From the NCBI RefSeq assembly GCF_013167455.1, contig NZ_CP038328.1: a stretch of 64,000 nucleotides of DNA; one strand, 5' to 3'. Position numbers: made by a program. This document shows, piece by piece, positions 1-27,000 of the stretch; within the stretch, counting starts at the first letter, position 1, and each line of letters opens with the position of its first letter. The stretch is from Escherichia coli O157:H7. Its GTDB lineage: Bacteria; Pseudomonadota; Gammaproteobacteria; Enterobacterales; Enterobacteriaceae.

Positions 1-3000
1 ACACCTTTACTGTTTTCACCAAACGGCTGCACTTGTTCGCTGTCCAGCATCGATTGCGTTTCCAGGAACCAGATGTCCTGGGTTTTAATTTTCGAACAGT
101 TCAGCACAATCGCGAGATCAATCCCGCCCTGCTCAATGCCCTGCGTCGCCAGATGCACCGCAGTCAGTGACGAGTTACTGGTGCAGTTCATGTTAGGCGG
201 CAAATACTGCAAGCGATATTTGCGCGCAAGATGGCTTGAAATCGTGTCCTGCGACATCTTTGAGGCATGCAGATTTGTGATGGATTGCGTTAAGTTGATA
301 TCTTCTACATCGTTGTAATTATAGAAAGATTTGTAATCCAGCCCGTCGATACGCGGCCCAATACCGGTCAGATAAACGCGAACGTTGCGCCCGGCCAGGC
401 AATGCTTATCCAGCATTGCCTGTTCCAGGGCTTCGTCGATCAACTGAGACAGCAGGTCCAATGCGCTATCGTCCACCTGTTTCAACGTCGCCACTGACGG
501 ATTACCCTTAAACCCGCATTTAATGGCTTCCTCGTTGGAGGTAAACCAGGGTGTACGCGCAACGCGTTTCCCCTGTTTCAGATTGTCAATTAACTGCGAA
601 CAGTCTTCGGCATACGGCATCCACACGCTGTAACCCGAAATAATAGCGGCATTGTCCACAGTCTTATCCCTTAATGACGAACGCGTAGTAGTTGCCGCCT
701 TCCGTTGCGCCAACAAGCAGGACATGGTTCAGCGCAAGTTTCATCGACTGGCGTACAAAATTCACACGCTCATCAAAGAATTCCACCGTATTTGGAATCG
801 CAGGTACTGCCTGCTTCTTAATGCAGTCAGTAATCACGGCGAGGTTAAGCAAACCAGCGGCAGAGGCGACAAAACCAAAGCAAGCGTTATAGTTCACTAC
901 CGGCACCGCCGGGTTTTGCGCGGCGAAGGTGTTGTAAATCGCGTCAATTTCGATACGAGAATGGTCATCGCTACCGTTGCTGGTACCACATACCAAATCA
1001 ATATCGCCAGCAGAGATGCCCGCATGCGTAAGGGCGCGTTCAATGGCCAGCGCCATCGACGCGGATTTTTCTTCCAACAATGAGGCGTCGAAGTAGGTAT
1101 TGCTGCATGACTTGCCGTAGCCCACCACTTCCGCGAGAACCTCAGCGCCACGCGCCACAGCCAACTGCGGATCTTCCAGCAGCAGCATGCAAGCCCCTTC
1201 GCCCGGAACATAACCTTGCGGATCTTTACCGTAAATCTGATAGTCGCTCGCCTCAGCCGTCATGTGGATCTTTTGTGTCACCGCATCCATATACAGCGAC
1301 ATCGACGGGAAGTACTCATCCGCGCCGCCAACCAATACCTGCGGTTGCAGGTTCTGCCGGACGATTTCATAACCGTAGGTCAGCGCGCCCAGCGCCGAGT
1401 TTTCCCCTGTCGCAAGCGTAGTGGTATACCCTTTGATCCCTTCAGAGATCCCGCAGAACGTTGGGATCGCATTCATCAGCGAGCCAGGAAATTCCGATGT
1501 ACGTACTTTGCGTGGATCGGGTTTCAGACTTTGCAGATATTTGTAGGTGGTTTCCTGCGGGCCGCGGGACATCCCCATGATCATGCCCAACTCATCGCCG
1601 TCGCGTTTGATTTTACGCTTCGCCTGTTCCAGCGCTTCGGTGAGTGCGATCAGGGCAAACGTGCCGCCACGGGTCGCTTTACGCTGATCGAAACGACGCA
1701 GGTGTTTACGCGGCTCCAGCCCGGAAACCTGGAACGTTTTAAAGTTGCTTTCCGTTTCCGGAAGCGTAGCTTCGCTGAAGCTGTACTCTTCATCAAACAG
1801 CTCGGCAAACTGGTTTGATTCATCCAGCACGGCCAGCAGCTCTTTGGCTTCTTCCAGTGTATCGTCCGGGAAGGTTACGCTACCCAGTTCAACGTGGTGG
1901 TCCTGCGCCCAGATGTTTTCCAGAACCTGGTTGAGCGTGTGGCCTATTGCGGATACTGCACCGACGCCCGAGATAGCCACACGCTTCGAATCATAGGTAC
2001 TGACCGGAATGGACGCGGGCTCCATGCTCAGGATCATGCAGCAGTTGTTGCCGCCGAAGGCATAGTTATTCTTCATGAAGATGTTCACTTTGCGATCGCG
2101 AAACTCATTCGGCACATAGTCCAGATCGCAATTCGGGCGTGCATGGCTGAAATTCAGCGTCGGCAGTACGCGGTTATCCGGAAGCGTTGCCAGACAGGCA
2201 ATCAGTTCCACAATCCCCGCTGCGCCAATGTTGTGGCCAAAGTAAGATTTGGTGGAGCTCACCAGCAGTTTATCGTGGTTAGCGAAGACCTTTTTCATTG
2301 CCAGCGTTTCAATACGGTCATTGGCTTCGGTACCCGTACCGTGCGCGTTGACGTAATCGATTTGCTCCGGGGTTACGCCCGCATTTGCCATTGCCTTGTT
2401 CATGACCTGCACCGCTCCGCTGGCACGCGGATCTGGCCCGGTTTCATGGAAAGCATCGCAGGAAGTGGCGTAAGAGAGGATCTCACCATAAATGGTCGCC
2501 CCGCGTGCTACGGCGTGCTCATACTCTTCCAGCACGATAGCGCCAGCGCCTTCACCAATCGACATACCGGACTGACCCGAGAACGGCGTACAAGTGTCTG
2601 GATGCATGACATTCAGTGCGTAGAATCCGGCAAAGGTCGGCAGATAGATGGGCTCAGTGCCCACTGCCAGCATGGTTTTGCTTTTACCATTCTGGATGTA
2701 GTCAAAGGCCATCCCCACGGCGTTCGGGCTGGCGGTACACGCGGTCGCCACCAGTTCAACCCCACCCTGTAAGCCCAGCAGCGTTGAAACGCTGGAACAA
2801 CAGGATGAGAATGCGCCGGAAAAGAGTGCTTTACGCAGCGAGAAATCTTCCATGCGCTGTTCGAACAGCGGCAAAAATGCCTCTGTTCCCGCGGACGAAA
2901 CACCGACGATCATGCCTGTTTCTTTGAGGGTGTCACGGCTATCCATCAGGCCGGCCTGACTCAGCGCATCTTTACCCACTTTGTAGGCCCAGAGCGCTGC

Positions 3001-24000: not shown

Positions 24001-27000
24001 TCATTATTATTTACACCACTAATAATTGCAGGCCCTTCAGTAAAGCGAAGAGAAAATGAATCATCATTCTCATCATCAAGAACATCCATCAGATCATAGA
24101 TATATCGTGACTCTACAATACTAAAAGCTGTCATATCATTCCCTATTGGCATAAGGAACACTATGGCTGTTTTACCTGGTACAAAACTTGTACCGCTAAT
24201 TGATACTATGCGTGATTCTTTATTTTTATTGTGAAAGCTCGTACCGTAAACATCGTTAACATTCATTTTTTTGAAACCGCTAACTGAAGAACATATTTGG
24301 AAATTATTTTCTATAAGACCCGTTGTTCGAACATAGGGGGTCAATGCTCCGTTAGCAATCAATTGTTCCAGGATATCTTTGCAGGGTTTCATCACCAGAA
24401 TAGAAGTAAGCTTTGTCGTATGTTTGACAATTTGCGTAACATTTTCAAGCTGTTTTAACAGAATACCGGCGGTAATTGTCGTATCTCGATTCATTTGAAA
24501 TACTGACATAGCAAACGACAGTAACCCCCCCAGAATGCCTGGTATTATAATGAGTACAAACATTTTTTTGTTGAATACCATACATGTTTCCCCACGCATC
24601 AGGGTGATGCAACCTAAGAAATTATAGTACAATTGCCAGTAAAAGCGGGTGATAGCAGACTGATCAATGATAAGCATTTAAGATCATATAGTACTATGAT
24701 ATTTCTGAAAATTGTTACGCATGTCTGCGAATAGCTATTTAGCGCTTACCAAAATCACCCGCTAAAATGCCGCTTTATGGTGACTCACAAAAATTCACCA
24801 CATCCCTCACAACCACCTTATTACGCCCGGTCTCTTTCGCCTCGTATAGTGCGTTATCAGCCAGTCGATAGATCTCATTCGGGTTTAACGCATTTCCCTG
24901 AGTCACAACAGCGCCAATACTAATCGTCACTTTTTGTGGTATAGCGTATTCAGGATTATCGCCAGTTAAACGCTCAACATTTTCCCGAATCCTTTCCGCT
25001 AAAGCTTTCGCACGTTCAGTATCGATGTCCGTCAGCAAGACGCCAAACTCTTCGCCGCCGACGCGCGCTAAAAGGTCATCTGGTCGTATGCTTTTCCCAA
25101 TGATATTCACCACTGTTTTTATCACCTGATCGCCAACCGGATGCCCCCAGGTGTCGTTGACTTTTTTGAAGTGGTCGATATCCATAATCATGACGCAATA
25201 AGGCGTTTTTTTGGCTGATGCTGATTGAACTGTCAGTTCATTAAAAAAATAATTTCTGTTAAATATATTGGTTAAGGGATCGCGATGTGCAATGTTCTTT
25301 GTTACTCGTAGCGCACTGAATATATGGCACATAAATATTACCATAACGGTTAACTTACTGACTACTTCAATAGTGCGACTAATATACCAAGTGGACACGC
25401 TATACCTACTCATAAATAACAGAGAGATATTGTACAGTACGGCACAAAAAGCAATCACCGTCACTCCATTCCAGATATCATAGCGTAAACCATTAAAGTA
25501 TAGATTAACCGAAAGCAAGGTTAACCACATGAAAATCATTATGGTAACATATGAGGCTTTCCAAACCACCTGACCATTTTCATTGGTTAACTCGGCAATG
25601 TGTAAATTGTAGCTCTCATAATGACTAGAAAGTATGTGAGCAACTATCGCCCCCCCAAAAACAAAAAACAAACTTATGCACAAAGTCATTTTTTTGGAAA
25701 ATAAATTGCGCTGTTTTGTGTTTTCACTAACTTTATTCACCAATGCCAGAAATATTAATATGCACAAACTCATCTGACGAAACAAATAATAGATTGCAAT
25801 GTCATTTTGGACAACACTGCTTGTCAAACGCCCCTCAATAATTTGCTGAATGATAATGACGGTTTTAACAAAGTAAATCAAACAACTCAGAAAAGCCAAA
25901 CTAAGTATACAGTTTGAAAATTGCCTACGGTCATAAATGAAATACAACTGCATAAAAATAAATGCAACAGTATCGATAAAAAATAAAGCAATCATTACCA
26001 TCAGATAGGTTGATCGTGGAACAACTTCCTCAACGCCTGGCTGATTAAACCAACTATTCACCAAAACCAAAGCAAGCCCAAACAATAAGCTCACTAATAC
26101 AGTACTACTAATTCTCAAATAGTCTTTTTCCATAAAGCTACACCAATCTGTAGGTTGTAGATCCCTTTCTATTATTAATAGATATAAGAACTGTACTGTT
26201 GTCAATATGAAATTCCGCCCACAAACAATACCGATGATGATAGTTGCTGAATGTAATTATTATTGCCTAAGTGCTTTATACATTGTTTGCAACAAGCCAG
26301 GCTTGAAAATACTTATAAATGGTTATAGAAAATCCTTATAAAACATTAATTCATAGATACATTAGGAATAACAATTAAATCCGTGAGTGCCGTAGCGCAG
26401 CCTTTCATCAGGACTTTCGAAAAATCCGAAATCATGCATCGGAATTTACTGATTTAATTATTTTAATCCTAATTTATTTTGAAAAAGGCATCGGGATTTA
26501 TGCCGTATTCCTGAAGATCCTCATCATTGGAATGGATTTTCGGGCGAGAAAAGGATTTTATATGGACACTCTGCTCATCATTTCTTCTTCTCATCATCAA
26601 CAATTCACGTCTCTCTTCCGCGTTTAATAACGGATTATGAGGTGCAAAAATATCTTTCTTTTCAGTTACCTGTAATTAGATACAGAGAGAGATTTTGGCA
26701 ATACATGGAGTAATACAGGATGTATTCAAGTAGCAGAAAAAGGTGCCCGAAAACCAAATGGGCTTTGAAACTTCTTACTGCCGCATTTTTAGCAGCGAGT
26801 CCCGCGGCGAAGAGTGCTGTTAATAACGCCTATGATGCATTGATTATTGAAGCTCGCAAGGGTAATACTCAGCCAGCTTTGTCATGGTTTGCACTAAAAT
26901 CAGCACTCAGCAATAACCAAATTGCTGACTGGTTACAGATTGCCTTATGGGCCGGGCAAGATAAACAGGTTATTACCGTTTACAACCGCTACCGTCATCA

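Follow-up and report, generated by a model that had tools for sequence, protein, structure and literature searches.

O-island 47 of Escherichia coli O157:H7 as a probable old insertion beside dgcT, lost from K-12 by an IS3-associated deletion

Does a segment that lies beside the diguanylate cyclase gene dgcT (ycdT) in Escherichia coli O157:H7 and is missing from K-12 record a gain by the pathogen or a loss by the laboratory strain? The question is raised by a 64,000-nucleotide stretch of the O157:H7 chromosome (RefSeq assembly GCF_013167455.1, contig NZ_CP038328.1; hereafter the window), the left part of which belongs to O-island 47 (OI-47), usually listed as DNA gained by O157:H7. The comparison presented here points instead to an old segment lost by most A/B1-type strains, including K-12, so that the presence or absence of OI-47 would reflect loss in the commensal laboratory lineage rather than gain by the pathogen. 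Such a history would bear on the island genes grvA and vmpA, so far discussed as pathotype-specific additions, and the deletions would explain the orphan K-12 gene ycdU and pseudogene ymdE; even the dgcT gene of K-12 would carry a C-terminus created by the insertion. The identity of the island is unchanged, and the analysis is in this respect mainly a confirmation with a refined history. New here are the apparent origin of ycdU and the truncated ymdE (ymdE′) as an operon tail, the position of the insertion sequence (IS) IS3 at the island’s right end without target duplication, and the arrangement serX-86 bp-dgcT, an empty site at which DgcT has another C-terminus, shared by phylogroup B2 strains and a divergent Escherichia lineage.

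Identity and limits of the island

Genes were called from the RefSeq annotation of an O157:H7 record identical to the window (locus L001, in which window position n is n + 12,000) and from NCBIfam scans. The two sources agree with each other and with the content listed in an earlier reading of the sequence alone (the first-pass annotation), namely an EAL gene, a ToxR-like pair, a short-chain dehydrogenase/reductase (SDR), a fimbrial operon and an operon combining two-partner secretion (TPS) with lipid-synthesis genes, the TPS-lipid operon (Table 1). In a megablast search of window positions 1-25,000 against 5,426 complete E. coli genomes, O157:H7 chromosomes such as that of FRIK1989 matched over the full length at 100% identity, and K-12 homology to the window starts only at 24,764. 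By BLAST extents, the K-12 match stops at L001 5036 and resumes at 36764, leaving a gap of 31,727 bp (L001 5037-36763) between ymdE/ycdU and dgcT. OI-47 has been published as a 31,727-bp island, z1528-z1556, encoding the ToxR-family regulator GrvA (z1531) (PMC8565820, PMC10877973), and vmpA, a cyclic di-GMP (c-di-GMP) phosphodiesterase gene, has been placed in it (PMC4076661). Because the K-12 gap matches the published size exactly and the two genes lie inside it, as a winged helix-turn-helix regulator and an EAL protein whose gene names and z-numbers are those of the literature, window 1-24,763 is the right-hand 78% of OI-47 (24,763 of 31,727 bp), an island already known; the resemblance pointed out in the first-pass annotation is thereby borne out. 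Compared with OI-47 of EDL933 (z1528-z1556), the window portion is the same DNA, without sequence difference.

As had also been anticipated, the left end of the island lies beyond the window, at a junction that we located approximately 7.0 kb leftward relative to K-12 and 8.4 kb leftward relative to the empty site described below. On the right, the interval 1-26,200 had been taken as absent from K-12, which is correct for 1-24,763 and incorrect for dgcT at 24,775-26,133; that end coordinate follows a longer mechanical dgcT reading frame beginning at TTG 26,205 (476 aa), the RefSeq product being 452 aa long from 26,133. From 24.8 to 64 kb the window is ordinary backbone, with dgcT, pgaABCD, phoH, efeUOB, putPA, rut, wrbA, agp, cbpAM and tor. 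The published limits of OI-47 coincide with those of the IS3 deletion in K-12, and the original insertion would measure 33,243 bp, including ycdU and the tail of dgcT.

Insertion, deletion and inheritance beside dgcT

The history that we regard as quite likely comprises one old 33.2-kb insertion beside the serX tRNA gene, an IS3-associated deletion now carried by 2,298 genomes out of 5,426, separate IS-linked deletions elsewhere, and vertical inheritance in the carriers. The state before insertion is represented by B2 strains (ST131, JCM5491), in which dgcT follows serX and a 75-bp repeat after only 86 bp and ycdU is missing; of the 5,426 genomes, 1,398 have this empty-site sequence. A DgcT scan of species-representative genomes recovered in addition a divergent Escherichia lineage (a record labelled E. 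coli SCPM-O-B-8794) with the synteny csg-ycdZYX-ghrA-serX-repeats-dgcT-pga, as in the empty-site strains. Its identity to E. coli is 79-83% in dgcT-pgaABCD and roughly 90-92% in csg-ghrA and efe, the pga-dgcT locus being much more divergent than its surroundings. The 86-bp spacer is homologous between B2 and the divergent lineage and has no counterpart in O157 or K-12, and no IS or ycdU remnant is found at the empty site of either. DgcT ends in ...VVMTEAENLMNWKDDD in the divergent lineage, in ...VVVKEAEILINRKDDE in B2 and in ...VVVRDVVNFCESP in both O157:H7 and K-12; the empty-site tails KEAEILINRKDDE and TEAENLMNWKDDD are homologous to each other, and O157 and K-12 have RDVVNFCESP instead. 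Because B2 and the divergent lineage share a homologous spacer and DgcT tail, the empty site with the long DgcT tail is best read as ancestral.

With this polarity, the inserted block corresponds to L001 3566-36808 (33,243 bp), ending at window 24,808, and K-12 retains both of its extremities, the left over 1.46 kb and the right over 45 bp. As judged from the comparison, a single insertion would have placed the block between the repeats that follow the serX tRNA gene and dgcT, in an ancestor from which the non-B2 E. coli lineages descend, at the cost of 86 bp, among them the final 14 dgcT codons. Measured from the tRNA-like core of the 75-bp repeat, the left junction of the block is 58 bp farther on. 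This 75-bp unit, which consists of the serX 3′ end and terminator and is annotated as ‘RtT sRNA’, is repeated one to at least four times between serX and ycdU/dgcT in a strain-variable copy number, and the left junction of the block falls just after one copy (L002 8413-9224; L001 3491-3565).

The block itself does not appear to be a self-mobile element. There is no integrase, transposase or other mobility gene among the 29 annotated genes of L001 3566-36808, no IS in the O157:H7 33.2-kb block, no att-like direct repeat of at least 14 nt pairing its ends, and no tRNA in L001 1-40000; furthermore, Rfam and tRNA scans of window 1-27,000 and of the whole block returned no match. The right junction agrees with the tRNA 3′ core at 10 of 14 positions, which we ascribed to chance, and the integrase on the left side of ycdU is part of a distinct serX island. 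Like tRNA-associated pathogenicity and genomic islands, of which the neighbouring serX tellurite/urease island with its P4-type integrase is an example, the block is large, strain-variable DNA beside a tRNA gene, carries adhesin and regulator genes, is partly AT-rich and is unstable. Unlike them, it has no integrase, flanking direct repeats or mobility genes, its junction is off the tRNA att core, and its divergence equals that of its flanks.

To the left of dgcT, K-12 has IS3, a 5′-truncated ymdE (an acyl carrier protein S-malonyltransferase pseudogene) and ycdU, as the first-pass annotation stated. The right end of this 1,258-bp IS3 abuts AAATGCCGCTTT, window 24,764 in O157:H7, and its left end abuts ymdE at L001 5023; the flanking triplets, CAC on the left and AAA on the right, show no 3-bp target duplication. 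CUVET18-1530 has the right junction of K-12 and a 100% identical 1,258-bp IS3, but its ymdE′ extends to L001 5208, and the flanks, GCC and AAA, again lack a target duplication. The locus thus combines the absence of a target duplication with one fixed IS end and variable end-points on the other side, and the fixed IS end with nested left end-points is best read as the signature of an IS-associated adjacent deletion; recombination between two IS3 copies is an alternative mechanism. An IS at the junction without target duplication, nested left ends and gene remnants are likewise seen in IS-mediated adjacent deletions and the ‘black holes’ described for E. coli, with the difference that the segment lost here had been catalogued as DNA gained by a pathogen. 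Among the genomes with the junction of IS3 to AAATGCCGCTTT, the 5208-type and K-12-type left ends stand at approximately 1:2, an estimate from a 60-row spread sample.

An IS-free junction (STEC17-190, O104:H4), in which ...AACCGCC is joined to GCTTTATGG, is present in only nine genomes. Its left end is of the 5208 type, and IS3 is missing together with AAATGCC, which is best explained by secondary loss of IS3 between two GCC triplets through GCC...GCC slippage. We also considered this scar as a deletion independent of that in K-12, both breakpoints being different, and rejected the idea in view of its restriction to nine genomes and of the intermediate allele, in which ymdE′ up to 5208 is followed by IS3 and dgcT. 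The proposed order of events is that IS3 landed at the right end of the block, that an adjacent deletion then removed about 31.6 kb up to the middle of ymdE, that a further 185 bp would have been lost in the K-12 sublineage, and that a few genomes would finally have lost IS3 itself between the GCC triplets; other lineages would have undergone separate IS-linked deletions.

Such independent events are represented by CUWW06, which keeps ycdU, full-length ymdE, the next gene and a truncated LolA-like gene followed by IS1, with homology resuming near window 24,630, and by O145 strains, in which an IS3-family element lies inside the usher gene and dgcT is also lost; JX21CE8 keeps only window 21,849-24,700 of the island. 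CUWW06 carries three IS1 copies, each at a lesion (csgD split, the island deleted, pgaA-pgaC deleted), and illustrates IS activity eroding the whole csgD-pga biofilm neighbourhood. In O145:NM FWSEC0002 (L040 14914-16796), dgcT is missing, vmpA has an altered 5′ end (1,572 nt) and is separated from pgaA by approximately 310 bp, and pgaB carries a frameshift; this strain therefore lacks the diguanylate cyclase that is thought to drive synthesis of poly-N-acetylglucosamine (PGA), with the neighbouring phosphodiesterase retained.

Island DNA is present in 417 genomes, nearly full length in 377, and never at more than one place in a genome; a single match of the 417 falls on a record classed as a plasmid, which may be a mis-assigned replicon. 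Identity is at least 99% in 308 genomes and 95-99% in 109, the latter including O145:H28, O157:H16 Santai (duck), PapRG-04-4 (baboon), and deer, calf and fresh-water isolates. From a spread sample, we estimate that at least 60 genomes outside O157, O55 and O145 carry the block at the same site. OI-47 has been called exclusive to O157:H7, O55:H7 and O145:H28 (PMC10877973); its host range is wider, and the occurrence of the same genes beside dgcT in non-O157:H7 duck, baboon, deer, calf and fresh-water isolates qualifies in part the first-pass view of an accessory island. Santai, 33F4 and PapRG-04-4 have the block at the O157:H7 site with 98.35%, 97.05% and 98.35% identity to the O157:H7 block, respectively, compared with 98.2-98.3% in the 12-kb right flank. 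In local neighbour-joining trees of dgcT-pgaA and dgcT-pgaB, the B2 empty-site haplotypes branch first and the haplotypes with the derived DgcT tail form one clade, with island carriers on both of its sub-branches: O157:H7 groups with IS3-deletion haplotypes, and Santai, PapRG-04-4 and 33F4 group with the IS1-deletion strain. This tree pattern and the equal divergence of island and flank are as predicted for ancestral presence with later losses. Vertical inheritance of the block is proposed for the lineages that escaped deletion, namely O157:H7, O55:H7, some O145:H28 and a scatter of isolates from animals and water.

Several points weigh against this history. Its polarity is taken from one non-E. 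coli outgroup locus and from trees that are local rather than genome-wide, and alleles could have moved between lineages by recombination. The carriers and the 1,398 empty-site genomes were counted by sequence matches, and the proportions of the 5208-type and K-12-type alleles are sample estimates. No attR was found, and the left junction lies past the tRNA-like att core. The operon status of tpsA..ycdU, discussed below, is read from gene overlap and synteny only. Finally, the GC contrast within the block (48.8% versus 41.8%) and the separate distributions of its modules suggest stepwise assembly.

The last point defines the competitor that survives best, in which at least two acquisitions built up the block in place, one bringing the TPS-lipid operon out of another Enterobacterales genome and one the AT-rich fimbrial/grvA/vmpA part from a different source. 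We hold this to be a serious possibility, although one that falls somewhat short of an even chance. The block does seem to be composite, because the operon alone (ycdU..tpsA) has relatives in other taxa, amid unrelated flanks and with ketosynthase homologs in many genera, because GrvA is nearly confined to E. coli and VmpA has no match in species-representative genomes in a scan by exact 8-residue words, and because the two parts differ in GC content. On the other hand, no E. coli genome was seen with one part alone undeleted, all partial forms carry IS or truncated genes, and both block ends are common to every derived allele.

It is very unlikely that the block was ancestral to all E. coli and that the empty serX-dgcT site of B2 and the divergent lineage arose by deletion. 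The locus is indeed deletion-prone, with at least four different IS-linked deletions seen, and the outgroup is a single locus; however, B2 and the outgroup share an 86-bp spacer and a DgcT C-terminus without counterpart in O157 or K-12, which would not arise again through independent deletions, a conserved 14-residue tail is beyond what a deletion can create, and the empty site carries neither an IS nor a ycdU remnant. Less likely still is a recent mobile-element gain in the O157:H7/O55:H7 lineage on an ancestral K-12-like backbone: although reviews treat OI-47 as O157-specific, absent from K-12 and restricted to O157:H7, O55:H7 and O145:H28, and although parts of it are strongly AT-rich and it lies near the serX tRNA hot spot with its separate integrase-bearing island, K-12 keeps the 5′-truncated ymdE and ycdU of the island’s own operon, IS3 sits exactly at the junction without target duplication, the dgcT gene of K-12 ends in the derived tail that the block created, integrase, att repeats and IS are all lacking from the block, its divergence equals that of the flanks in other carriers, and genomes outside O157, O55 and O145 carry it at the same site.

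The TPS-lipid operon and its K-12 relics

Retention of the block’s left extremity in K-12 is best appreciated from the operon to which ycdU and ymdE appear to belong. The minus-strand run from tpsA to ycdU spans 20.3 kb and 17 genes (window 1-12026 and, leftward, L001 3697-12000), in the order tpsA, tpsB, acpS, ketoreductase, dehydratase, acyl carrier protein, GcvT-like, tandem ketosynthase, ketosynthase, a protein without family, LolD-like, a second without family, LolC/E-like, LolA-like, a third without family, FabD-like (ymdE) and ycdU. TpsA, with its TPS domain, is encoded beside TpsB, as in two-partner secretion systems; POTRA_2, POTRA_3 and ShlB domains are recorded for the TpsB counterparts in two syntenic operons (L006 and L007), the window TpsB being assigned by its RefSeq name. 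In O157:H7 the run passes the formal limit of OI-47 into a full-length 313-aa FabD-like gene, the intact ymdE, and then into ycdU, which overlaps ymdE by 4 bp; ycdU would be co-transcribed with tpsA. Within tpsA we noted an internal direct duplication with a period of 1,134 nt, covering about 800 nt at 67% identity (window 8338-9128 / 9472-10262), with a core of 84 nt at 79% (window 9045-9128 / 10179-10262).

The syntenic operons L006 and L007, from two other taxa, contain the same 17 genes in the same order, from TpsA to the FabD-like protein and a 333-aa protein that is 53% identical to YcdU (E 9e-125), within flanks unrelated to those of E. coli. When the whole block was compared with them by tblastx, the matches covered exactly ycdU..tpsA (L001 3685-23993) and essentially nothing else, stopping at the start of tpsA. 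The intergenic region upstream of tpsA (IG1) shows no conservation in L006 or L007 by tblastx, and its identity among E. coli carriers is 91-99%. Gene for gene, the 17-gene operon is also kept in other Enterobacterales and in metagenome contigs.

K-12 keeps ycdU and the 3′ 344 nt of ymdE, with 98.2% identity to the O157 genes. Because the L006 and L007 operons run from tpsA through the FabD-like gene to a YcdU homolog, the K-12 ycdU and ymdE′ appear to be the 3′ tail of the island’s 17-gene operon, an origin newly proposed here. The first-pass annotation had placed the island ‘instead of’ IS3-ymdE-ycdU, which does not hold: O157:H7 has both ycdU and a full-length ymdE, as the last two genes of the island’s own operon.

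Homologs of the tandem ketosynthase with 70-89% amino acid identity occur in Kosakonia, Klebsiella aerogenes, Enterobacter, Pantoea, Mixta, Serratia, Rahnella and others, and further homologs in genomes labelled Neisseria sp. and Aeromonas veronii (79-83%) and Acinetobacter sp. (74%). This distribution points to inter-order transfer of a secretion-plus-lipid system with its own Lol-like exporter. Tentatively, and with more doubt than confidence, we propose that the operon is one conserved, horizontally spread machine, in which a type II fatty-acid/polyketide-like synthase and a Lol-like exporter, both private to it, are coupled to a two-partner-secreted exoprotein. Such an operon might make and deliver a special lipid, or lipidate or anchor TpsA, and the K-12 genes ycdU and ymdE would be its relics. 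A literature search by locus tags and for a cluster of TPS and ketosynthase genes found no paper describing such a system.

Other gene content, base composition and neighbouring features

The non-operon part of the block amounts to 12.8 kb and holds a chaperone-usher operon, the SDR gene, the grvA-fidL pair and vmpA (pdeT) (Table 1). A major subunit, periplasmic chaperone and usher within one operon assign the fimbrial genes to the chaperone-usher class from gene content alone. Pfam gave no match for hyp207, the first fimbrial-operon gene product, or for the FidL-like protein, and the latter is also without an NCBIfam model.

Table 1. Coordinates of features in the left 26 kb of the window
Feature	Window position	Strand	Basis or remark
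Beta-ketoacyl synthase gene (407 aa; L001 11436-12659), 5′ part, cut by window start; TPS-lipid operon	1-659	-	annotation; weak ketosynthase family matches
Tandem ketosynthase, 852 aa: FabF-like plus second, degenerate ketosynthase	664-3222	-	Pfam PF00109/PF02801 twice (precomputed)
GcvT-like aminomethyltransferase family protein	3296-4456	-	135 bits versus GcvT cut-off 300: paralog, not GcvT
Acyl carrier protein	4492-4773	-	annotation; same order in L006, L007
FabZ-like dehydratase	4795-5343	-	annotation, family match; same order in L006, L007
SDR/ketoreductase	5347-6108	-	annotation; same order in L006, L007
Holo-acyl carrier protein synthase AcpS	6122-6490	-	annotation; same order in L006, L007
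TpsB (ShlB/FhaC-type) outer-membrane transporter	6506-8125	-	RefSeq name ShlB/FhaC/HecB family
TpsA exoprotein, 1270 aa; first gene of 17-gene operon tpsA..ycdU	8214-12026	-	TPS/NPXG domain TIGR01901, 77 bits versus cut-off 29.1
IG1, AT-rich (33.9% GC) divergent intergenic region, tpsA / fimbrial operon	12027-13416 (1,390 bp)		no open reading frame >72 aa, Rfam family or tRNA
Six-gene chaperone-usher fimbrial operon	13417-20041	+	annotation, NCBIfam
hyp207, first fimbrial-operon gene, 32% GC	from 13417	+	no family (Pfam, NCBIfam)
Major-subunit-like protein	14083-14643	+	annotation, NCBIfam
Fimbrial chaperone	14729-15430	+	annotation
Usher	15483-18005	+	annotation
444-aa fimbrial protein	18021-19355	+	annotation, NCBIfam
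Second chaperone	19352-20041	+	annotation
KduD-like SDR oxidoreductase	20187-20969	-	295 bits, below KduD equivalog cut-off 369
AT-rich (31.6% GC) divergent intergenic region upstream of grvA	20979-21656 (678 bp)		no open reading frame >72 aa, Rfam family or tRNA
grvA, ToxR-family winged-helix regulator	21657-22469	+	annotation; weak CadC/HilA winged-helix matches; literature name
FidL-like partner of grvA	22474-22965	+	hypothetical in L001; FidL-like in other RefSeq records
vmpA/pdeT, EAL c-di-GMP phosphodiesterase	23067-24677	-	full-length PRK10551 match, 314 bits, below cut-off 461: paralog
Right end of OI-47 as defined versus K-12	24763..24764		IS3 position in K-12-type genomes
Last 45 bp of block, retained in K-12	24764-24808		final 11 codons and stop of dgcT (24775-24808), unlike B2/outgroup tail
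dgcT (ycdT), diguanylate cyclase, then pgaABCD	24775-26133	-	shared backbone, not island; K-12 match, annotation

GrvA homologs above 90% identity are found in E. coli only, the next best reaching 51%. GrvA has been reported to activate the enterocyte effacement locus (LEE) through gadE repression in an RcsB-dependent manner, and deletion of OI-47 to raise type III secretion (PMC8565820, PMC10877973). Its identity to MarT is 30% (PMC10877973), and, as in marT-fidL of Salmonella pathogenicity island 3, a gene for a ToxR-family winged-helix regulator precedes a FidL-like one in the grvA pair; the two pairs differ in location and neighbours, there being no misL beside grvA.

VmpA aligns end to end with PRK10551 over residues 44-534 at a score below the equivalog cut-off, and no VmpA relative was found in the scan of species-representative genomes, whose requirement for exact 8-residue words limits rather than proves absence. 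In two papers, VmpA is equated with PdeT and counted as the sixth CSS-domain phosphodiesterase, and a title cited in both states that it affects motility and biofilm (PMC5635171, PMC5897775). With a phosphodiesterase gene directly beside dgcT and the pga operon, the locus may form a local c-di-GMP module. Next to the dgcT-pga biofilm genes, the block would have contributed this phosphodiesterase, a ToxR-family regulator that according to the literature acts on the LEE and acid resistance, a fimbrial system and the secretion-plus-lipid operon.

The island portion of the window has a GC content of 45.2%, versus 50.0% in the rest, and this difference is unevenly distributed. Window 1-12,026 has 48.8% GC, with third-position values (GC3) of 0.57-0.61 in the ketosynthase, GcvT-like and TpsA genes, compared with 41.8% in the right-hand, fimbrial/grvA/vmpA part of the block. 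The description of the whole region as AT-rich therefore applies to IG1 with hyp207 and to 20,187-24,677, to which values of 32-42% are confined, and not to 1-12,026 or to the fimbrial structural genes (46-51%); half of the island is backbone-like in composition, which again goes part of the way against its accessory character. The two long non-coding stretches singled out in the first-pass annotation, 12,027-13,416 and 20,979-21,656, are genuine. Composition does not change abruptly at the junction, given that dgcT (38.6%, no less AT-rich than the right end of the island), the dgcT-pgaA spacer (34%) and pgaAB (44-47%) are also AT-rich.

Two further features lie in the backbone part of the window. 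A 447-aa hypothetical gene at 38835-40178, in the efeU/putP interval, coincides with a low-GC patch (38% at 38-39 kb) in K-12-like surroundings and is a candidate for a further small insertion specific to some strains. In the window as a whole, the kilobase with the lowest GC content (34%, with a strong negative GC skew) corresponds to a frameshifted YccE-family pseudogene at 55605-56862.

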